Notes under the pieces: generated by a model | What the model was told of the DNA's origin: nothing | Seen by the model: only the letters and a program-made list of their open reading frames with translations | Databases searched by the model: none | Source: a virus | Strand: one strand, 5' to 3' | Length of the DNA stretch: 64,000 nucleotides | Virus record (IMG/VR): IMGVR_UViG_2751185817_000001 | Position numbers and translations under genes: made by a program | In this document: piece by piece, positions 7,582 through 63,387 of the stretch | Position numbering within the stretch: the first letter of the stretch is position 1 | Layout of the letters: each line of letters starts with the position of its first letter

Positions 7582-7711
7582 AATAATCCTCGAGATTTTT
7601 CGCGCAACCCGATGAAAAGCTGACTATTCTATTCTTAGCGATTTAGCGAAATCGCTAAGTCGAAAAGTAGCAAAGCACCAACCTACCAGCCTACGAAAAG
7701 GAAAAATCGAT

Positions 7712-10539: not shown

Positions 10540-11643
10540 ATGGCATCAGCAGCAGATATCGCAAAGAGCCTCGCCGGCGCGATCGGAGCCAACGACGAGG
10601 AAGTGACTGTCTCGCAGTTCCTCCCCTCGGGGTTCCCGCCTCTCGACCACGCATCCAATTCGAGCTGGGATCTCGGCGCCTTCCCGGTCGGCCGCATGAT
10701 TGAGATCGCCGGCCCTCCCTCCTCCGGCAAGACCGCGCTCGCAACGGCAGGCATGGCCGGCGCACAGAAGATGGGCGGAATCGCAGGCTTCATGGATCAT
10801 GAACGCTCATTCTCACTGCGCCTGGCGCCGCGCCTCGGCCTCGACACCACGCCTGGTCGGTTCATCTTCAAGACGCCGAAGACCTTCGAGGAAAGCCTTC
10901 AGATTTGCGTCGTCGCGGCCAATCACGTTCGCAAGAACAAGTTGATCGCGAAGGATGCTCCGATTTGCTGGGTGTTCGACAGTCTGGCTGCGATGGTGCC
11001 GCAGTCGGCTTACTACGAAATGAAGGCGGGTAAGGTCGTCGGTGTAAAGTCGCTCGAGGACCGCAACATGAACGACAATACGGCGCTCGCGCGTGCGACG
11101 TCGAACGCCTTCCCGGCCTTCGCTCAACACTGCGAGGATCTCGGCATCTGCGCCATCTTCCTCAACCAGATGCGCACCGACCTTAACGTCAAGTTCGGCG
11201 ATCCGCGCAAGACGACCGGTGGTAACGCGCCCGAGTTCTACTTCTCGCAGCGCCTCTGGCTGTCGGCATCGCAGATCAAGAAGGGCACCGACATTATCGG
11301 CATGGAAGTGACCGGCAAATACAAGAAGAACAAGATTGCGCGTCCGTTCCAGGAGGCGAGCTGGCGCTTCGAGTTCCAGGAAGACGGCACTGGCAAGTTC
11401 AACCGCTTCCGCTCGCTGATCGAGTTTCTCGAGGGGCTCGACCTGATCAAGAAGGGCAAGCAGACCGGCACGGTCGAATGGGATGGCAAGACCTACCCGA
11501 AGGCCACGCTCTCCAACACCCTCGAGGCCGAAGGTGACAAGGGCTTTGCCAAGCTGACGGCATTGCTGCCGGCGAACTACGAGCCGCCTGTTGTCGCCGA
11601 GATCGACGCTGAGATCGACGAGGACGCGGCTATCGCGGCGTAA
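10540..11643 (+). CDS. recA: RecA/UvsX recombinase
   Basis: GRMIEIAGPPSSGKT Walker A, VFDSLAA Walker B, IFLNQMR, FGDPRKTTGGNAPEFY. Confidence 0.95.
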   Translation: MASAADIAKSLAGAIGANDEEVTVSQFLPSGFPPLDHASNSSWDLGAFPVGRMIEIAGPPSSGKTALATAGMAGAQKMGGIAGFMDHERSFSLRLAPRLGLDTTPGRFIFKTPKTFEESLQICVVAANHVRKNKLIAKDAPICWVFDSLAAMVPQSAYYEMKAGKVVGVKSLEDRNMNDNTALARATSNAFPAFAQHCEDLGICAIFLNQMRTDLNVKFGDPRKTTGGNAPEFYFSQRLWLSASQIKKGTDIIGMEVTGKYKKNKIARPFQEASWRFEFQEDGTGKFNRFRSLIEFLEGLDLIKKGKQTGTVEWDGKTYPKATLSNTLEAEGDKGFAKLTALLPANYEPPVVAEIDAEIDEDAAIAA

Positions 11644-11719
11644 TTTCGCGATTTAGCGTTTTCGCTAGCGTCTCCGATGAAAATCAGTCTATTCAAGATC
11701 AAATCATCGGAGACGCATC

Positions 11720-35330: not shown

Positions 35331-36134
35331 ATGAACGCATTGAACAGCACCACTGCTCTTGCCGGCGCAACCGCAAATCAGCTCGACGACCTCCTCGATG
35401 ACCTCGAGCTCGACGGGCTGGACAACGAGGAGATCTCGGACGAGGTGGAAGAGACCGTCGTTCTCGAAGCCGACGCCGTAGTCGAGGAGCCGGTTGTGAC
35501 GGATGAGGATCTCGAAAACGTCGACATCGACGCTCTTGAGATCAACCTCGACCGTGAGGAAGGCTACGCGAGCCAGGAAAGCGAACTGGACGTCGCAGAG
35601 AAGCCCGCTGACGCGGTTGCAGCAGCAAAGGGCACCTCGACGCCGAAGACGCCACGTGCGGCTTCTGCTCCGCGCGCCCCGCGTGACATGGCATCGCTCG
35701 ACGCGAAGGTCTTCGTTCTCGAAGGCGACGCGTCGACGATGGAAGATGGCGCACTCGAGGCGAACAAGACCGATGTGATGGCCGCAATCCCGTCGCAGAA
35801 GAAGATCGCCGAGAAGTTCGAAAACCTGTTCGCCGCCCTCAACGCCGGCAAGCAGCCCTCGGTCTACGTGACCCAGGCGTTCAAGCTCCTGGACGAGAAG
35901 AAGACCATCACCGGCACGGACATCACCACGATGTTCAAGGCGAGCTACAAGCAGGGCACGGCGCAGTCGCAGTCCGGCCAGATCATGACCCTCTTCGAAG
36001 CCGTCAAGATCGCCACGCGCCAGAAGAACACGCTGGTGCTGAACGATAGCTCGGTCGTCGCCGAGCGTCTGCGTGCGATCTTCGCCGCAGCAGCCAACAC
36101 CTCAACCCAGACCACGACCGCAGCAGCGGCGTAA
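35331..36134 (+). CDS. hypothetical protein; acidic N-terminus, putative winged-helix C-terminus
   Basis: GGAG RBS, ATG 35331; C-terminal ~90 aa resemble the 55558 and 57885 proteins. Confidence 0.7.
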   Translation: MNALNSTTALAGATANQLDDLLDDLELDGLDNEEISDEVEETVVLEADAVVEEPVVTDEDLENVDIDALEINLDREEGYASQESELDVAEKPADAVAAAKGTSTPKTPRAASAPRAPRDMASLDAKVFVLEGDASTMEDGALEANKTDVMAAIPSQKKIAEKFENLFAALNAGKQPSVYVTQAFKLLDEKKTITGTDITTMFKASYKQGTAQSQSGQIMTLFEAVKIATRQKNTLVLNDSSVVAERLRAIFAAAANTSTQTTTAAAA

Positions 36135-54399: not shown

Positions 54400-55440
54400 G
54401 GTTGACAGCGGTTGACACGAAAACAGCCATATTTGTCTAGTGAGCATCTCATTTAGGCGTCTTCCGTTGACGTAAGTTTACGCCAGGTTGACAAACGCCC
54501 TCCCAAATTAAAATTTTCCCTCTGTCAACCAAATCGCAGCTCATCTCCAGCGAACACCAAAACGCTCAGAGAAGCGCACAGACTCGCTCCAGAAGCGTAA
54601 GCGATCAGAGAGACGCAACAACTCACCCAACACACTCAGCAAGCAATCTCGTCAACGCTACACGCTAGACCAACGCACAGAGCGCAACACTCGGCCAGAC
54701 AACGCGCGAAAGACAGAAAGCAGACACACCACGGCTCACTAGAGAGACAGCACACCTAGAGAGCACGCATGAGCCTATAGAGCAGATCATGGTGTATGTG
54801 AGAGACAGCACCGGTGTGTAGGTGAGTAGTAGAGAGCGCAGATGCGTGTGGAGTGTGTAGATCGTAGAGAAGATAGGAATCGTAGCGAGTGGGTGGGTGT
54901 GCCGCGCCATGCCTTCTACTCCTCTTACAATCCTACACCGCCCTACCCTTCCTCACCACGCCAGCATGAGCCGCGCTCAGCCGTCTTCAACCCCAACAAC
55001 TCAGCGTTATCTTCAATTTTACGCAAATCACACGCGTAGCAGGCGATCGTCCGTCGTTCTGTTGGTTACATGCAGCGTGATCGCCAGCGACAGCGGTCCT
55101 TCTCTAAGGCGGGTCATGACGACTCGCCTTTCTTTTTGTCCTCGAAAATCCAGGAACCAGGCGCGTCCGCTCCATAAGACGGAAACCGTGAACCAATACC
55201 GATCGAGCGGCCGAGCCATGGAGAAACCGTGCCAGGCCGGAGGAGATCCATGGAGAGCCGCGGAAGACCATGGGTGCGCCGTGGCTAGCCGGGAGCCGTC
55301 GACCATGGCGAGAGGAGTCTTCACGCCGGAGAGTGAGCAATCCGGTCCGTCTCCCTTCTTAGTTTATATTCTCTATTACAGTAGTATCTATACATAGAAG
55401 GGAGACGGCACGGAACGTGTCAGAATTGTGATCTCTCCGG
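54400..55440. other. about 1 kb non-coding region, candidate replication origin or packaging region
   Basis: No credible ORF; GGTTGACA repeats, strand-skewed TT-free tract, CCATGG cluster, nested inverted repeats around an AT-rich core. Confidence 0.5.
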
Positions 55441-55557: not shown

Positions 55558-56253
55558 ATGGCGAAGCAGTCCACCAACGCACCGGCCGGCAAGCAGTCCA
55601 ACACGAACGAGGCCGCCTACATATTCACGGACGCACTCAAGGCACACGGCGACGACGAGGCGAAAGTCTTTGCTCTGAAGATCGGTGCCGCCTTCGATGA
55701 GCGCGTCCAGTTCGAGATCAGCCGCAAGGCAAGCGGCTCGGCCGACATGCCGAAGGTGAAGAAGCTCAACAGCTACCGTGGCAAACTGGCGCTGCCGAGC
55801 ATGGCGAAAGTGCTGATGGAGCTCAAGATCTCCGAGATGTTCATCAACACGCGCCAGGGCAAGGAGACGGACGGCGATCGCTTCAACATCTACGCCATCG
55901 ACAAGGTGATCGACTTCGTCCGGGCGCTCGCCGGACAGCAGAAGCTCTCCAACGCGCACAACGTCGCCATTGCGAAGTCCATGCTGATCTTCGAGGAGAA
56001 CGGCAAGACATTCACCGGCGAGATGGCGATGTGTGCCGCGTCCGACAAGATCCGCAGCCAGAACCCGGATGCAAAGCTCTTGCGGCGCCACAACGTCGAC
56101 AAGTCCACTGCCGGCACGCAGGCATCATCCACGCTCAATGCACTGATGGCGCTCGGCCTGGTGAAGAACACCGGCACGAAGCGTGCTGCGACCTACGTCT
56201 TTGCCAACACCAACCAGGCGAAAGCCTTCAAGGAGCTGCTGCAGGCTGTCTGA
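55558..56253 (+). CDS. putative winged-helix DNA-binding protein
   Basis: AGGAG RBS; C-terminal STAGTQASSTLNALMALGLVK helix-wing pattern. Confidence 0.7.
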   Translation: MAKQSTNAPAGKQSNTNEAAYIFTDALKAHGDDEAKVFALKIGAAFDERVQFEISRKASGSADMPKVKKLNSYRGKLALPSMAKVLMELKISEMFINTRQGKETDGDRFNIYAIDKVIDFVRALAGQQKLSNAHNVAIAKSMLIFEENGKTFTGEMAMCAASDKIRSQNPDAKLLRRHNVDKSTAGTQASSTLNALMALGLVKNTGTKRAATYVFANTNQAKAFKELLQAV

Positions 56254-56278
56254 GGAGCAGCGCACCAGGTAAGGCGAG

Positions 56279-56306
56279 AGGGCGGAGTTTAGGCTCCGCT
56301 CTTTCA
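56279..56306 (+). terminator. intrinsic terminator
   Basis: AGGGCGGAG/CTCCGCTCT stem with TTT. Confidence 0.65.
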
Positions 56307-56563
56307 TTTGGGTGTGGGCTGTCCATGGGGAACCAAGGCGAGTGCAGGTGAAGGTTGGGGAACCGGTGGGGTCCAAGGGACCGGGCGACCGTGAAACCAT
56401 GGCGTTCCTGTCCGCACCATGGCAAATCCATGGACCGGTCCGTCCTCCTTCAGGCCATGGCGGGTCCACGCTTCGCCAGGCCGGTGTGCATGCCAGTCAA
56501 TTCCTATTGATCGCCGTAGCGAAATCGCTAAATTGCTATTTATCGAAACAGCGAGAGACGCAC

Positions 56564-56908
56564 ATGACGATCATAGCCTACGCAGACGCCACAAAGATCA
56601 CGCTCGAGGAAGAGGCAGCTCGCTGGCGCGCATTTGAGGCGTGCACTGAAGATGGTGAGCACGTGACGGATCTCGCCGCGCTCGAGGCACTGATCCGCGG
56701 ACAGAGCGTTGTCATGGAGAAGGTGGCGCAAGTCAGTCACGGAGGTCTTCCTTACGTGGAGTTGCTCGGCATCACGCCTGTCGACAGTCCAAACAAAGCC
56801 TTCCTCTGGATCTCGCTGTGCAAAGGCGTCGATTGGATGGAGTGCTGCATGGCGCAAGAGTTCGGCGCCGCGGACTTCCTGGATCAGCAGACTTACAATG
56901 CCAGATAG
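56564..56908 (+). CDS. hypothetical protein
   Basis: ATG 56564 after TAGCG motif and GCTATT. Confidence 0.65.
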   Translation: MTIIAYADATKITLEEEAARWRAFEACTEDGEHVTDLAALEALIRGQSVVMEKVAQVSHGGLPYVELLGITPVDSPNKAFLWISLCKGVDWMECCMAQEFGAADFLDQQTYNAR

Positions 56909-56977
56909 CGCCAGATTGCGCGATTTCGCTAAATCGCTAAACTCGAAAGCGTCAACAACGAACGAAGCGAGTTCAAC

Positions 56978-57154
56978 ATGCACACCATCATTCCGGCGCC
57001 GACGACCGTCATTCGCATCAAAGAGATGACGCCGCGGCAGTCACACCTGGCGCAGCAGACGCTAGCGCTCGCCAAAGACACGTGCGCCTTCATTGCGATG
57101 ATCGTCTTCGTCTGCGCCGTCATCGCGCTCTGCATCATGATCAAGACCAGCTAG
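56978..57154 (+). CDS. 58-aa membrane peptide (below ORF-track cutoff)
   Basis: MHTIIPAP...CAFIAMIVFVCAVIALCIMIKTS; followed by a terminator. Confidence 0.55.
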   Translation: MHTIIPAPTTVIRIKEMTPRQSHLAQQTLALAKDTCAFIAMIVFVCAVIALCIMIKTS

Positions 57155-57170
57155 CAAAGGAGGATCTCGA

Positions 57171-57200
57171 ACGAGCCGGCGCGTCGTGCGCCGGCTTTTT
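57171..57200 (+). terminator. intrinsic terminator
   Basis: AGCCGGCGC/GCGCCGGCT stem with TTTTT. Confidence 0.8.
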
Positions 57201-57450
57201 CGTGTGCGCTTGCGATCCATGGCGCCCCTCGGCGCCCCTCGTCTACAATTTTAGGAACCGAGGCGAATGACGCCATATAGTGCCATCCTCCGGCGAGTCC
57301 CTCAGCGCGCCTCCTGACGTTCGCCTGTTAGCATCTGCTACATCACGTCGCACTACATTAGTGCACGCTTACACAGTGCGCACTGCATTAGCAGACACGC
57401 AAAAGCGCGCTATCTCTAGCGCGCTCATATTAGCGATTTAGCGATTTCTT

Positions 57451-57657
57451 CTATTCGCTATAGCTTTCGTTCTGACGCATATTCAGCATTTCGAATATGT
57501 CGCTTTGCTGATAATCGAAGCGACGATCTAGCAGCTCAAAATGAGCACTCTCTAATACGCGCTTCGCTTCGCGTCGTTTCTGTCTGTCACGCATTTCGCG
57601 CTGTGTGAGTGATACGCGCATAGTCGAGTAACTCTTGCTCATGTCTCTAGCTTTCAC
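57451..57657 (-). CDS. small basic protein with no Gly/Pro/Trp
   Basis: 68-aa ORF coupled to upstream ORF inside the island. Confidence 0.6.
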   Translation of the reverse strand: MKARDMSKSYSTMRVSLTQREMRDRQKRREAKRVLESAHFELLDRRFDYQQSDIFEMLNMRQNESYSE

Positions 57658-57848
57658 TTGTAACGTGCTACAAATCGACGACGTTCGTCTCTGACGCGCT
57701 TCGAGCGCATGCGCTTAGTCTGACGCTCACGCAAAGCGCGCTGCAGTGAGCGATTAGCGTCGCGCGAATTTGTGAGTGCTGCATACATGCGAAGAATGAA
57801 AATAAGCATCGTCTTAAACTCTCGTCTGTTGATACTGCTAGCGCGCAA
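57654..57848 (-). CDS. small Arg-rich protein with no Gly/Pro/Trp
   Basis: 64-aa ORF downstream of operator at 57863; true start may be the internal ATG (MLIFIL). Confidence 0.55.
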   Translation of the reverse strand: MRASSINRREFKTMLIFILRMYAALTNSRDANRSLQRALRERQTKRMRSKRVRDERRRFVARYK

Positions 57849-57862
57849 GATACGCGCTAGCT

Positions 57863-57882
57863 AAATCAATGTTGATTGACTG
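57863..57882 (-). promoter_or_regulatory. operator-like motif inside the CC/GG-free island
   Basis: Minus strand cagtcaatcaacattgattt. Confidence 0.7.
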
Positions 57883-57884
57883 TA

Positions 57885-58466
57885 TTACGCAGTCAAACGC
57901 GCTTCGATTTTCTGCATGATCTCGTTATCGTTGACAGTATACTTGTCTTTTGAAACAGACTTCAAAAGATTGAGTGCAACAAGAGCACGCATATTCATAG
58001 ATGCGTGACGCTTTGCAGATGAGAAGACGTCTTTGCGACGAAAATACAAGTGTTGACGCTCTTTCGCGACTTTAATATTCTTGTCGAGCGCGATTTCAAT
58101 GTCGCTTGCGCTGAATTGTTCGTTCGCTTTCTTGAAATTAACGAGCGTGCGCAACGTTTCTTCAACGTTTGACTTCAGCTTGTCGACGTTGCGTCGATCG
58201 ACTGCAAATTCGAGAATATGAGCGCAATTCTCAAGTGCTTTCATGCAAAACGCGCTGTTAGCTTGAACACTGTCTTGCGCGAAGTCTGTCTTTACTTCAC
58301 ATTTCTTCAGCATTTCAGCAACTGCGTCTTGCTTGACAACAAGAGCGCACTTAGCAATGAAGTTTAACGAGTTAGTAGACTTCTCGTTCTTCAGTTCTGC
58401 GTCGTAGCGTGCAGAGAGAGAAAGAGCGTAAGCGTTGATTACTACTTCAGTCATAACGTGTCTCAC
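57885..58466 (-). CDS. putative winged-helix DNA-binding protein with no Gly/Pro/Trp; resembles 55558
   Basis: 193-aa ORF; colinear similarity to the 55558 protein by eye. Confidence 0.75.
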   Translation of the reverse strand: MRHVMTEVVINAYALSLSARYDAELKNEKSTNSLNFIAKCALVVKQDAVAEMLKKCEVKTDFAQDSVQANSAFCMKALENCAHILEFAVDRRNVDKLKSNVEETLRTLVNFKKANEQFSASDIEIALDKNIKVAKERQHLYFRRKDVFSSAKRHASMNMRALVALNLLKSVSKDKYTVNDNEIMQKIEARLTA

Positions 58467-58913
58467 TTTCGTTTAGTTGTTTCGTTGTCGTTGTTGACAT
58501 GATCACTAAACACTAGTTCGAAACGTCTGACAATAGCTAAATCGCTAAATCGCGAATTATTTTTGAGCAATGCATAAGTCATTGCTGATTTGCTCATAGC
58601 AGCACGTAGAGCGTCACTGACACGCATAGACGCGTTTGCGCTGTCACTTAAGCGCGCATGTCATGCGATCGATCCCTCGTCGATCTGTGAGCGACTGTGA
58701 GCGTGTTTCGATTGAGAGAAGCGAAGTCTTAGAAAATTTGACGTAGTGCGAACATGATGCCCACTGCTGCCCGAGCAATTCCCGGCCTGGACTACCTCTC
58801 CTCGTGCCTCACCGGGACGGACAAGTTGACCTGGGTAGTTCCCGTTCCCGGCGCCCCCTCTCCCCTGCCCCGCAGCCCGGATTCCCTTGCTCAAAACTAC
58901 CCATCCCAACGGT

Positions 58914-58933
58914 AAATCAATATTGACTGACTG
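58914..58933 (+). promoter_or_regulatory. operator-like motif
   Basis: aaatcaatattgactgactg. Confidence 0.7.
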
Positions 58934-58985
58934 TGCCGAGCCGGATAGTGTGCTGGCATTCCAACAAATCCAAGGATCCAAGTTC

Positions 58986-59732: not shown

Positions 59733-59764
59733 GTCGCGAAATCGCTAAAGCAAGGTATCGCTAA

Positions 59765-60223
59765 ATGTCAAACAAGACCTATCCCTACGGCCTTCCCCTG
59801 GAAGGCATACCACTGGCCGGCGCGATCGGCGAGCTCAAGGCGGAGAAGATTCCGGCAGGTTCCATCCTGCCGGGCGTCGCTCCCCTGCCCGAGACCCACT
59901 GGACGGCGCTAACCGACGGCGCCGGCACGACTACTCTCACCATCGATCCGTCCAAGCTTGTCGCGCACAGGATCCAAGGGCTGCCCGTCGCCGGCTATGA
60001 GCCGGAGGTCGACGCCTGGAAGGTTGAGATGGTCAACGAGAACAAGATCCTCGAAGAGCGGGTTCTGCGTCGCGTCGATGAGCACGTTCGTAACCGCGAC
60101 AGCCAGGAGATCGACCAGGCCTCGGTGCAGATCGCCCGTCGGCACGTCGAGGATGCTTTCTATCGCCTCAACCGAGCCATTATGCATCCCAAGCGCATCG
60201 CTCTGCCGGAGGACGCAGCATGA
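59765..60223 (+). CDS. Acb2/Tad1-like hairpin protein (putative signalling-nucleotide sponge) with N-terminal extension
   Basis: GLPVAGY...VNENKILEERVLR...QIARRHVEDAFYRLNRAIMHPKR two-helix pattern like Acb2 (IKGYRDL...N..K...[21 protein letters not shown]). Confidence 0.6.
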   Translation: MSNKTYPYGLPLEGIPLAGAIGELKAEKIPAGSILPGVAPLPETHWTALTDGAGTTTLTIDPSKLVAHRIQGLPVAGYEPEVDAWKVEMVNENKILEERVLRRVDEHVRNRDSQEIDQASVQIARRHVEDAFYRLNRAIMHPKRIALPEDAA

Positions 60224-60799: not shown

Positions 60800-61030
60800 A
60801 TGAAAGCTTTTATGTTCGGCTTCAAGGAAGGCATCCACCTGTTCTTCCGCTTCGTGCGCCATGTCGTCGCCTTCCTTCTGCGCCTGGTCGTCTTCCTGCT
60901 TTGCGTCGGTGCTGCAGCCGTCATCGCCGCGGGTTTCTTTTCGATCGGTATTCCGCTGCTTCTGCTGGTCGCGCTTGCCTTCGGACTCTCGACGCTCGGC
61001 TCGCGTATCGATCCGCGGCGCCGCATTTAG
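60800..61030 (+). CDS. membrane protein
   Basis: GAGG RBS; two hydrophobic segments. Confidence 0.6.
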   Translation: MKAFMFGFKEGIHLFFRFVRHVVAFLLRLVVFLLCVGAAAVIAAGFFSIGIPLLLLVALAFGLSTLGSRIDPRRRI

Positions 61031-61043
61031 CGATATCGCTAAA
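61026..61043. promoter_or_regulatory. perfect palindromic copy of second motif (TAGCGA/TCGCTAAA)
   Basis: TTTAGCGATATCGCTAAA, next to the partition operon. Confidence 0.7.
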
Positions 61044-62034: not shown

Positions 62035-62223
62035 TCGCGAAACCTCTATCTCGTTAATTCGCTAAATCGTTAGCGCCTAATGGTTAACGAAATTTTACGA
62101 GTCGGGGAAGAGGGAGGCGACGCGGCCCATTTGCGTCAACAACGAACCGACACAACCTAACGGAAGCGATTTCTAGGGCCGCGCCAGACCCGTAGATAGG
62201 CCTTCGGCGCGACCAGGGCAAGA

Positions 62224-63171: not shown

Positions 63172-63213
63172 TGCACAGGAGCGATTTATGGAAGGAGCGA
63201 ATTAGCGTTTTCG

Positions 63214-63387
63214 CTAATTCTCCGGGCCCAGAAGCCCGCGAACCTTGGCGCGTTCGACCAGGCGCTCGAGCCGCTCGTTCTCCTTGCGGAGATCTTCGAT
63301 AACCTCGAGATAGAAGCTCTCGGTCATTGCCGAGAGCCCGCAGGTGTTGAAGAAGTGGATTGCGATCTCGCGTTCTTTCTCGGTCAT
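63214..63387 (-). CDS. small hypothetical protein
   Basis: GGAAGG RBS; ATG 63387 overlaps helicase stop. Confidence 0.55.
   Translation of the reverse strand: MTEKEREIAIHFFNTCGLSAMTESFYLEVIEDLRKENERLERLVERAKVRGLLGPEN

Follow-up and report, generated by a model that had tools for sequence, protein, structure and literature searches.

A predicted winged-helix protein without Gly, Pro and Trp, encoded in a CC/GG-free island of rhizobial phage-plasmids

Several described systems share features with the locus analysed here. TubR/tubC, ParR/parC, omega and P1 RepA combine, on plasmid-like replicons, short repeats with the adjacent gene of a small DNA-binding protein, and in P1 the repA gene is flanked by incC and incA. 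The C1-type immunity of P1 relies on a repressor with many dispersed operators in the plasmid prophage. A precedent of another kind is the expressed stretch that is kept free of an otherwise common short word: the first-step-transfer DNA of T5 is without EcoRI sites, and engineered ACA-less mRNAs escape MazF. The present locus lies in a 64-kb stretch of DNA (IMG/VR record IMGVR_UViG_2751185817_000001; hereafter the window) and which is from a phage-plasmid of rhizobia. Its gene A (55558–56253, + strand, 231 aa) has CCATGG arrays on both sides, and its gene B (57885–58466, − strand) encodes a paralogue in a 1350-bp island (57324–58674), kept in relatives, across which the dinucleotides CC and GG are both absent.

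A and B belong to an uncharacterised winged-helix protein family, of which A is the canonical member. No Pfam or NCBIfam model reaches threshold with either protein; A is without any Pfam family, both stay below the gathering threshold of ArsR/SmtB (HTH_5, PF01022), and B gives merely a sub-threshold Tlp match. A has 23 close homologues and 323 clusters at 50% identity, and its match to phrog_4202 is weak. The sources of all family members found are RHEph10/pLM21S1-type phage-plasmid-like contigs (~110–120 kb) or Rhizobiales (Hyphomicrobiales) assemblies, and this element group is one of phage-plasmids (PMC4447125, PMC7969092). In the AlphaFold models (AF2 pLDDT 88.5 for A and 89.5 for B) an N-terminal helical domain precedes a C-terminal winged helix, the recognition helix of which carries TAGTQASS in A, nearly invariant among A copies. 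Residues 115–231 of A match winged helices at Z 8–10, and all fold matches (Z 6–10) are with winged helices of the generic type. The C-terminal ~100 residues of both proteins superpose on ArsR/SmtB- and MarR-type regulators (CzrA, HlyU, BigR; AF1382, PDB 2qvo), with which they share three helices followed by a beta-hairpin wing; the best PDB chain common to both is 2qvo_A (VIA Z 10.0 for A, 7.0 for B), Foldseek probabilities against these folds reach 0.99 for A and 0.57–0.66 for B (TM by target ~0.5–0.6), and the sequences around the recognition helix and the wing weakly match NmtR and CmtR. A and B depart from ArsR/SmtB proteins by an additional N-terminal helical domain (~90–110 residues), a C-terminal helix and the near absence of metal-site residues, and the recognition-helix motif specific to their family is TA[GP]TQ[AS]SS. 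The resemblance is one of the generic winged-helix fold and does not speak for ArsR/SmtB membership. The fold together with the site arrays makes DNA binding by the winged helix of A and B likely.

Pairwise BLASTP among A, B and a third gene, C, returned nothing (E ≥ 1), so the colinear alignment of A with B that the first-pass annotation had drawn by eye lies below pairwise detection. Profile methods, to which BLASTP is blind here, recovered it with the same segment pairs: hhalign gave a probability of 91.8% and E 7.5e-7 over 171 columns with shallow profiles, and 97.4% and E 9e-12 with the deep A-family profile. The reversed, column-shuffled and block-shuffled profiles used as controls scored 14–17 and never above 25, the real ones 50.9 and 37.7. 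When all B copies were compared with the A family by deep profiles, E was 2e-42. An A-family HMM (147 sequences) matches 20 of 20 island-family proteins at 17.6–43.8 bits (33.9 for the window's B) and intermediate B copies at 116–162 bits, and an island HMM matches 142 of the 147 A-family representatives at p < 1e-3. The structure prediction that had been suggested as a check agrees, in that the models of A and B have an identical order of helices and strands and share their top two ESM-Atlas clusters (TM 0.73/0.73 and 0.67/0.62), below which the TM values are 0.34 for the A model and 0.41–0.55 for the B model. We therefore regard paralogy of A and B, with recoding of B, as very probable. That the two are non-homologous and merely converged as generic winged-helix proteins might be argued from the BLASTP result, an identity of only 14% (25/181) and the great commonness of winged helices, but the alignment spans both domains (171–181 columns), the shuffled controls fail, the intermediate B copies score highly, the pair is conserved in position and both proteins fall into identical full-length Atlas clusters; this reading strikes us as scarcely credible and is effectively refuted. 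In the tree the A copies form one clade (support 98/94) and the B copies lie outside it on long branches, the A/B labels requiring 2 changes against 16.5 when shuffled, and with the B HMM the local A is outscored by other family members. A recent copying of the neighbouring A into B is ruled out by the tree and these scores, and on such sequence comparisons B is an old, fast-evolving paralogue of A.

Gene C (35331–36134, + strand, 267 aa; phrog_5235, PHROG match 4e-58) had been put forward as a third member. Support for this is weak: shallow profiles give E 0.25 and 0.85 in hhalign and the A-family HMM scores below 5 bits, but deep profile-profile comparison yields E 8e-6 to 9e-5 for an alignment confined to ~100–135 residues of the C-terminal part (about residues 112–263), with scores of 47 and 40 where shuffled profiles reach 19 ± 4 and at most 32. 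This is suggestive only, and makes the C-terminal part of the gene C protein a weak candidate relative of the winged-helix half of A and B.

The reading frame of B gives 193 aa from the GTG at 58466, and its real start is probably the ATG at 58454 (189 aa), as in the 98%-identical relative P0001. Because the ban on CC and GG removes all codons for Gly (GGN), Pro (CCN) and Trp (TGG), the protein contains none of these residues and is written in an alphabet of 17. Four glycines conserved in the family at 80, 78, 98 and 96% are Asn, Asn, Asn and Ser in 17–20 of 20 island proteins, and conserved prolines of the A family become Lys, Asp or Glu in B. The loss of A's most conserved glycines was thus correctly read by the first-pass annotation, as was the place of the 'LG' glycine, which in the models caps the recognition helix immediately before the wing. 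The recognition helix of the window's B has itself diverged to SAKRHASMNMRAL; since SAKRHASM stands where the family motif is expected, B is a divergent member with a DNA specificity that is probably changed. Most B copies of other lineages retain T-A-[SD]-T-Q-S-S-S at this place.

The island stands out sharply from its surroundings. The next longest CC/GG-free run in the window is 85 bp, the chance maximum is ~68 bp, and among the ten dinucleotide steps CC/GG alone gives a run of this length. Besides B, the island holds two small ORFs that are lineage-specific, together with the flanks of B's leftward transcription unit; the two ORFs, which lie downstream of B (57451–57848, − strand), encode Arg-rich proteins of 64 and 68 aa that are conserved in the closest lineages only. 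The last CCATGG before the island (57217–57222) directly follows a terminator-like hairpin (57173–57197). The CC/GG-free run continues 127 bp beyond the last ORF and also takes in the likely promoter region. Codon junctions and non-coding parts are also without CC/GG, which supports a ban that acts on the nucleic acid in all frames and not a preference at the protein level. RHph_N1_15, a relative with a whole genome of 116.7 kb, has a single such island, outside which CC/GG occurs at 12–14% of positions; with one island per 116.7 kb, the avoidance across all enzyme-exposed DNA sought in a restriction or PAM test was not found.

Conservation of the arrangement was assessed in 27 related IMG/VR loci. 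Copies of both A and B are present in 25 of the 27, with B placed 1–6 kb from A, and an island of at least 400 bp surrounds B in 21 (runs of 404–1531 bp); a distant contig of 49% GC has the identical layout of A, B and island. This recurrence in distant phage-plasmids bears out the suggestion that A and B belong together. B is the sole gene common to all islands (18/18), and its coding sequence contains no CC/GG in 15 loci and 1–3 in six more. The upstream CC/GG-free margin is as short as 41–76 bp in several loci, and a ban confined to one gene with a margin down to 41 bp fits a block of expression in cis and not lethal cutting. Some lineages retain an unpurged B, and no neighbouring gene distinguishes island from island-less loci among those compared. 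In locus L028, 77 CC/GG have been regained, nearly all of them synonymous or at junctions (71 at codon positions 2–3 or junctions), and its B protein is still nearly free of Gly and Pro; such relaxed DNA with a purged protein, together with the CC/GG-free junctions, sustains the earlier proposal that a ban at the DNA level overrides a protein preference. The excess of CC over GG on the sense strand of relaxed lineages (17 versus 6) results from the codon usage of a Gly/Pro-free protein.

The upstream CCATGG array (55216–55308, with sites at 55216, 55248, 55268 and 55303) and the downstream array (56323–56460, with sites at 56323, 56397, 56417, 56428 and 56455) bracket A, and the placement of the former at −100 to −400 relative to A is kept in about 20 loci. 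The enriched word is not CCNNGG, as had been supposed: beside A, CCATGG is enriched 36-fold, CCTAGG 11-fold and CCACGG 5-fold, and the remaining CCNNGG variants lie at 0.4- to 2.2-fold. CCATGG spacings peak at 10 bp (26 cases), 20–22 bp (30) and 31–32 bp (13), and the arrays beside A occur at 49 to 67% GC. Five or six loci have the conserved recognition helix of A without the arrays (L018, L030, L033, L036 and, with two sites, L017); the island, too, is missing from three of them, and in L018 an island is present although the arrays are not. We predict that A binds CCATGG, and consider the chances evenly balanced. Between the upstream array and A lies an inverted repeat with an AT-rich core (55341–55414; 32-nt arms, 78% complementary), which could be a promoter or unwinding element; other loci have AT-rich TATA-type palindromes at its position.

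A second palindrome, TAGCGAWWTCGCTA, is itself without CC/GG and precedes several operons and B. The window holds 11 sites against 0.8 expected, one of which lies in the island ~80 bp upstream of B's ATG (58534–58557) and is a candidate operator; the others start at 7636, 7644, 11654, 56517, 56918, 56926, 57431, 59734, 61028 and 63203. Within 20 kb, TAGCGAWWTCGCTA occurs 8–10 times in the lineage whose B helix has diverged and 0–1 times in most others, although this association comes from a single lineage and has exceptions (L016, L023).

We propose that A and B both bind DNA sequence-specifically, and that A, together with the B of most lineages, whose recognition helix is near-identical, would bind cooperatively to the CCATGG arrays, along a single face of the DNA helix, and so control an early or control region around A. 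B would be a regulator whose expression has to continue under a CC/GG-dependent block that affects other DNA in cis, and in the lineage of the window, with its altered recognition helix, B may bind TAGCGAWWTCGCTA instead. We incline towards this explanation as a whole, that of a paralogous pair, DNA binding and a cis block escaped by B. For the block we prefer the proteins of the family itself, which would nucleate at the arrays and occupy the DNA or spread along it: if these proteins need CC/GG, the gene of B would be the one stretch that they cannot hold. Self-exemption from family binding is a tentative reason for the ban, since a 6-bp site can be avoided without losing every CC/GG and the family's binding must therefore be very degenerate or spread. 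In its fullest form, which we think unlikely, A and B would be a DNA-coating or silencing system that nucleates at the phased CCATGG arrays and holds any CC/GG-containing DNA, from which the controller gene B escapes through a code of 15 dinucleotides and 17 amino acids.

The ban might instead answer to an outside agent, such as an enzyme of host or phage origin by which CC/GG is nicked, modified or marked, or CRISPR with a CC or NGG PAM. B would then be the gene whose transcription has to run on DNA that lacks protection, for instance ahead of all other genes after entry, or without pause in the plasmid prophage, and for this reason its transcription unit would avoid the target word, by the same logic as in T5. 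The ban is strand-symmetric and frame-independent, as for a reader of double-stranded DNA, it has been lost in single lineages (L028, L022, L027), which fits a host or accessory factor, and the phage is rich in repair functions (two ATP-dependent ligases, RecA, an SbcCD-like pair, UvsW and a T5 A1-like protein). On the other hand, the phage would not survive a double-strand cut elsewhere in its other 115 kb, which leaves only non-lethal agents that work in cis; short palindromes such as GCGC, CGCG and GATC remain in the island; and no bacterial enzyme with plain CC/GG specificity is known to us, the hosts included, nor did the phage yield one. The nearest enzyme is the chlorovirus nickase Nt.CviPII, which recognises CCD. 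The annotation of RHph_N1_15 contains no DNA methyltransferase, which also counts against such an agent, and none was found in pLM21S1 (PMC5537653). Such an agent, which leaves unexplained why the exempt gene is always A's paralogue, we judge improbable. Somewhat more doubtful still is a ban at the RNA level, by which the B mRNA would escape a GG- or CC-requiring endoribonuclease or RNA-binding repressor, or would be translated without a Shine-Dalgarno-like GG and made selectively during shut-off of other mRNAs. The CC/GG-free run does follow the transcribed region, with its short upstream margins in several loci, no canonical GGAGG-type site precedes B's ATG, and the phage encodes an RtcB RNA ligase. 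Yet GG and CC are both banned on the sense strand, which one DNA step explains more simply, the run in the window extends into the likely promoter region, the imbalance of CC and GG in relaxed lineages is accounted for by codon usage, and we know of no such RNase and found none here.

A mutational origin, for example CC deamination on the single-stranded DNA of a highly transcribed gene that outruns selection, after which lineages swapped Gly and Pro for non-mutable codons, would suit the confinement of the run to a transcription unit and the lower GC of the island (46% versus 58%), where TA and TT are commoner than in the rest of the window. But CG (0.091) and GC (0.097) are still frequent there, so that C and G as such have not been lost, and glycines conserved at 96–98% are replaced in all B copies, which means that the cost per site must exceed strong selection on the protein; a CC-specific deaminase is neither known in the hosts nor annotated in the phage, and we rate this origin as very improbable. 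It is distinctly unlikely, too, that A is the replicon initiator of the phage, with the CCATGG arrays as its iterons, B as a paralogous competitor or repressor that keeps the origin silent in the plasmid prophage, and the CC/GG ban as a separate matter. Phased repeat arrays on both sides of A, the inverted repeat between the upstream array and A, and weak matches of the winged helix to ORC/Cdc6 and plasmid initiators speak for it, and a separate lytic origin is plausible because RepC, for the plasmid replicon, is encoded at another place. An iteron initiator, though, contains two winged-helix domains, and the models here show one plus an all-helical N-terminal domain; CCATGG is a 6-bp palindrome and usual iterons are 17–22 bp; and no Rep family in Pfam, NCBIfam or PHROGs is matched.

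The essence of the finding is a clean natural case of a constraint on DNA sequence that overrides strongly conserved protein residues, in a paralogous pair of which one member serves as a built-in control and in a comparative series whose stages are never purged, fully purged, and relaxed with a fossil protein. It indicates that a folded two-domain protein, predicted to bind DNA, can be built without Gly, Pro and Trp, and that the substitutions which allow this place Asn or Ser at helix caps and turns. Since the ban attaches to a single putative regulator gene, in phage-plasmids that have hardly been studied, discovery of its agent should expose a new mode of gene insulation, a new dinucleotide-specific activity that targets nucleic acids, or a new logic of immunity. 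Were the coating reading true, the island would be a natural, genetically encoded insulator, and the A/B pair would be a switch of a new type, by which phage-plasmids decide between lysis and lysogeny (or shut off the host).

The locus touches several known systems and departs from each. Like centromere and iteron systems, it has repeats in helical phase (10, 20, 31 bp), here on both sides of A, and TubR is among the weak fold matches; unlike them, its repeat is a 6-bp palindrome and no iteron of 10–20 bp, an adjacent TubZ or ParM partner is absent, and the partition genes (ParA plus a small regulator) and RepC of the phage-plasmid are encoded elsewhere. A paralogue in recoded DNA, as B is, has no counterpart in the TubR, ParR, omega or P1 RepA systems. 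With restriction-site avoidance, T5 and ACA-less mRNA the island shares the principle of an expressed stretch free of a short word, but the word avoided is no longer than one dinucleotide step, the exemption covers one gene (0.4–1.6 kb), and the avoidance overrides conserved glycines to leave a protein alphabet of 17 residues. With P1 C1 it shares the phage-plasmid setting, a divergently oriented regulator gene and a dispersed operator-like palindrome before operons and its own gene; no sequence relationship to C1 was found and the role of B as a regulator is putative, and, unlike B, P1 c1 is not compositionally recoded.

A pairwise BLASTP comparison finds no similarity among A (the 231-aa protein encoded at 55558-56253 on the plus strand, between CCATGG arrays at 55216-55308 and 56323-56460), B (the 193-aa island protein encoded at 57885-58466 on the minus strand, or 189 aa from the more likely ATG at 58454) and C (a 267-aa protein encoded at 35331-36134 on the plus strand), so the colinear likeness of A and B claimed by eye in the first-pass annotation lies below pairwise detection. 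Comparison of profiles by hhalign nevertheless recovers the segment pairs listed there. The alignments of 16 homologues of B and 17 homologues of A match over 171 columns with a probability of 91.8% and an E value of 7.5e-7, and the pairwise HMM comparison is positive (scores of 50.9 and 37.7 in the two directions) where the reversed, column-shuffled and block-shuffled control profiles fail (14-17, maximum 25). The A family comprises 323 clusters at 50% identity in an exhaustive profile search, and an HMM built from 147 of its representatives matched all 20 of the 20 island-family proteins with 17.6-43.8 bits (33.9 bits for B of the window). In the reverse direction the island HMM matched 142 of the 147 representatives at p < 1e-3, and hhalign with the deep A-family profile gave 97.4% and an E value of 9e-12. 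At the level of sequence profiles, these comparisons show that A and B are paralogous. In a maximum-likelihood tree, 25 of 26 A copies form one clade (support 98/94) and the B copies, which have long branches, are placed elsewhere, with the A and B labels requiring 2 changes compared with 16.5 when shuffled, and from this we conclude that the duplication is old and that B is evolving faster. A recent origin of B by copying of its neighbor A is ruled out because the local A reaches just 17 bits with the B HMM and other members of the family as much as 38 bits.

The predicted structures bear out this relationship. The AlphaFold models of B and A are both confident (pLDDT 89.5 and 88.5, respectively) and have the same order of elements: three to four helices at the N terminus are followed by a loop and a further five helices, and the chain closes with a beta hairpin and a C-terminal helix. 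The top two clusters in an ESM-Atlas shape search are common to both models (TM 0.73/0.73 and 0.67/0.62), the TM declining in lower rows to 0.34 (A model) and 0.41-0.55 (B model), and the best PDB chain for both in an exhaustive VIA search is 2qvo_A (Z 10.0 and 7.0). Only the C-terminal ~100 residues match solved structures, and these are generic winged helices (ArsR/SmtB, MarR, TubR, ORC/Cdc6 and kleisin WH domains). Foldseek against the PDB returned nothing for either model at E ≤ 0.001, and the best hits in a PDB sequence-profile search were ArsR-type proteins with E values of only 0.13-0.7. Matches among AFDB clusters were to uncharacterized family members only, and the top two for the A model, clusters A0A0D5A1E0 (325 aa) and A0A0D5A146 (257 aa), both uncharacterized, have adjacent accessions and may represent an A/B-like pair on one replicon. 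The A/B family is uncharacterized and missing from Pfam; Pfam, NCBIfam and PADLOC hold no family for A, B or C, and PHROGs contributes phrog_5235 for C, a weak match to phrog_4202 for A and nothing else.

The island itself (57324-58674) contains zero CC or GG across 1350 bp, where the second-longest such run within the window is 85 bp and the maximum by chance is ~68 bp, and CC/GG is the only one of the ten dinucleotide steps to show a run of this kind. The window region shares ~73% nucleotide identity with the Rhizobium phages RHEph10, RHph_N1_15, RHph_Y2_11 and their relatives, whose genomes of ~115-117 kb encode RepC, ParA, two ParB-like proteins, a T5 A1-like protein, a Pol III alpha subunit, a sigma factor, rIIA/B and lambda-like tail proteins. 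RHEph10 and pLM21S1 are treated in the literature as one group of plasmid-like prophages (PMC4447125, PMC7969092). The island is kept in the three GenBank relatives, and a single one is present in the complete RHph_N1_15 genome, with CC/GG at 12-14% of positions in the rest of the genome. Homologues of the studied proteins lie on contigs of 110-120 kb in assemblies of Rhizobium, Pararhizobium, Mesorhizobium, Shinella, Phyllobacterium and Faunimonas, and a scan of genome contigs yielded three loci only, from Faunimonas, Methylocystis and a Rhizobiales MAG. Around the island of the window, a terminator-like hairpin (57173-57197; 11 pairs including 8 GC pairs, with a T run behind it) closes the rightward genes ~130 bp before the island starts. 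A 22-bp repeat containing TTGAYTGACTGT is present in two copies that are 91% identical, one directly past the stop codon of B (57862-57883) and the other just beyond the island border, where the rightward operon begins (58913-58934).

The arrangement of an array-flanked gene with a purged paralogue nearby is conserved. On a distant metagenomic phage contig of 49% GC (L008), a 420-aa family member lies amid CCATGG clusters, and 2 kb downstream of its gene a 1660-bp CC/GG-free island encodes a family member free of Gly and Pro. Scanning IMG/VR with the alignment of A homologues returned 27 loci, mostly on contigs of 107-119 kb and ranging from 49 to 67% GC, of which 21 have a CC/GG-free run of 404-1531 bp located 1.2-6 kb from the canonical gene and 25 have a second family member. 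Where there is an island the second copy is encoded inside it, in either orientation, and its final 190 residues are free of Gly, Pro and Trp. It is also the sole gene common to the 18 islands examined (18/18), the neighboring small ORFs being lineage-specific; those of the window have no family in Pfam, NCBIfam or PADLOC. The module is thus conserved, and B is the only conserved cargo of the ban. Counts of CC/GG in the B coding sequence, taken over the IMG/VR loci, the window and L008, are 0 in 15, 1-3 in six, 6-7 in two and 18-77 in four, and a comparison of neighborhood gene content revealed no gene that separates island from non-island loci. Two of the four high-count loci (L035:15086-15817 and L033:13762-14412) have second copies with normal Gly/Pro and no island, and comparative work can use them as natural controls that were never purged or have reverted.

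The cost of the ban is evident when the island proteins are aligned to the deep A-family profile. The four best-conserved glycines of the family (80, 78, 98 and 96%) are replaced by N, N, N and S in 17-20 of the 20 island proteins (N70, N115, N166 and S172 in B), conserved prolines become K, D or E, and 18 of the 20 proteins are wholly without Gly, Pro and Trp. One of them, as had been noticed by eye, affects the 'LG' glycine, which caps the recognition helix ahead of the wing and is G200 in A and N166 in B; another affects the turn of the wing, where A has G206 and B has S172. At left-handed turn positions Gly is usually replaced by Asn or Ser. That a ban on DNA lies behind the purge, as first suggested from the window, is upheld by the B copy at L028:1937-2638 (IMG/VR contig 3300022749_000077), where the DNA has regained CC/GG (77 steps, GC3 0.83) and the protein remains almost without Gly and Pro, with 71 of the 77 steps at codon positions 2-3 or codon junctions. 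The ban therefore acts at the nucleic acid level. The L028 gene looks like a case in which the DNA constraint has lapsed, perhaps recently, and the protein is left as a fossil of the ban, and the two loci with 6-7 CC/GG (L022 and L027) look like earlier stages of the same lapse.

The proposal that C is a third member of the family is weakly supported. Shallow profiles gave a null result in hhalign, and the HMM of 147 A-family representatives had no match in the C family. An alignment of 71 C homologues matches the deep family profile over 57-135 C-terminal columns (E 8e-6 to 9e-5; scores of 47 and 40 compared with 19 ± 4, maximum 32, for block-shuffled controls), and it pairs G-T-A-x-S-Q of C with T-A-G-T-Q of A, the same motif pair that had been picked out by eye. 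An Atlas feature search with C reached 0.85-0.86, under the useful range. The likeness is confined to the C-terminal part, and C is possibly a distant relative of the winged-helix half, short of an established member. Its N-terminal 110 residues (35331-35660) are strongly acidic and of low complexity.

The arrays are not of the generic CCNNGG type initially suggested. In 25 loci taken together, the flanks of A have 8.0 CCATGG per kb compared with 0.22 per kb in the background, a 36-fold enrichment, while CCTAGG is enriched 11-fold, CCACGG 5-fold and the remaining CCNNGG words 0.4- to 2.2-fold, and on this word-by-word basis the generic reading was dropped in favor of CCATGG. Counted from A, the arrays are situated at -100 to -400 and at +60 to +300, with more in the intergenic spacers up to the island, and the spacing of neighboring sites has its maxima at 10 bp (26 cases), at 20-22 bp (30) and at 31-32 bp (13), that is, in helical phase. 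The recognition helix of A (S-T-A-P-T-Q-A-S-S-T-M) is almost invariant, and most B copies retain an A-type helix in which Pro is changed to Ser or Asp; in the lineage of the window the B helix deviates and reads SAKRHASMNMRAL. We infer that A and B both bind DNA, and that A and most B copies do so at the CCATGG arrays. The initial idea that the family coats or protects CCNNGG sites finds no support in that form. Upstream of the first array, the non-coding stretch 54540-55010 is made up of consecutive blocks with a strand bias (T 9% at 54540-54760, C 12% at 54800-54905 and G 12% at 54905-55010) and includes an AA/TT-free run of 152 bp from 54718, where ~89 bp is expected as the longest. Before it, at 54401-54530, GTTGAC(A) is found four times in direct orientation within ~90 bp, with inverted copies ~35 bp beyond the direct cluster and at 54651, and these copies resemble -35 hexamers or a cluster of binding sites.

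The window also carries 11-12 sites of a CC/GG-free near-palindrome, TAGCGAWWTCGCTA, compared with ~0.7-0.8 expected. They are found at 7636-7660, 11643-11667, 56517-56538, 56918-56942, 57431-57446, 58532-58550, 59734-59766, 61025-61041, 62057-62067 and 63203-63216, often as tandem 8-bp units of AAATCGCT and mainly in intergenic spacers before operons, with one copy ~80 bp before the ATG of B. The density is 8-10 per 20 kb in the RHEph10/RHph lineage, to which the window belongs, compared with 0-1 in most others, with two other loci also rich. As a lead, we regard TAGCGAWWTCGCTA as a candidate target of B, based on its occurrence in one lineage with two exceptions.

We tentatively propose that B has to stay expressed while proteins of its own family occupy, or spread over, DNA with CC/GG steps. 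This proposal uses all of the parts and is placed ahead of the alternatives, but we hold it to be less likely than not because a total dinucleotide ban far exceeds what would be needed to avoid a 6-bp site. That the module represents a new kind of insulation or silencing system is less likely still. A lethal cutter at CC/GG makes little sense, since the ban covers one gene in a genome that has CC/GG at 12-14% of positions elsewhere; any acting agent would have to block expression in cis or work on the transcript. An unrelated activity that nicks, modifies or reads PAMs at CC/GG is an unlikely agent, at about the same level as a new insulation system; no methyltransferase is known in the RHEph10/pLM21S1 phage group (pLM21S1: PMC5537653).

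At several loci the CC/GG-free run starts just 41-69 bp before B, which fits a transcribed region, and an immunity exerted at the RNA level is one way to read the ban, although we give it little credence. The sense strands of nearly purged B genes have 6 GG and 17 CC, a skew that was rejected as a discriminator since codon usage accounts for it, and it thus does not separate a DNA-level from an RNA-level cause. A context-specific mutational process is the least probable of these causes and, in our view, very improbable. That A is an iteron-type initiator and B its controller is slightly more plausible than RNA-level immunity, although still unlikely, and concerns the function of the pair rather than the ban.

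Restriction avoidance, the first-step-transfer DNA of T5 and MazF-resistant mRNAs are known cases in which a short word is avoided. In the literature we found nothing relevant to phased CCATGG repeats or dinucleotide-free phage genes, and no precedent for one conserved gene stripped entirely of one dinucleotide step at a cost of three amino acids together with glycines conserved at 96-98%, where the gene that pays is in every case paralogous to one with CC..GG-containing arrays on its flanks. The A/B fold is a common winged helix that carries an extra helical domain. Plasmid centromeres and iteron origins likewise have phased repeats around the gene for a DNA-binding protein, as at A, and the helical-phase spacing of CCATGG resembles the cooperative binding on one face of the DNA in known centromere and iteron arrays. 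We regard the finding as a new form of sequence avoidance, combined with a new winged-helix family.
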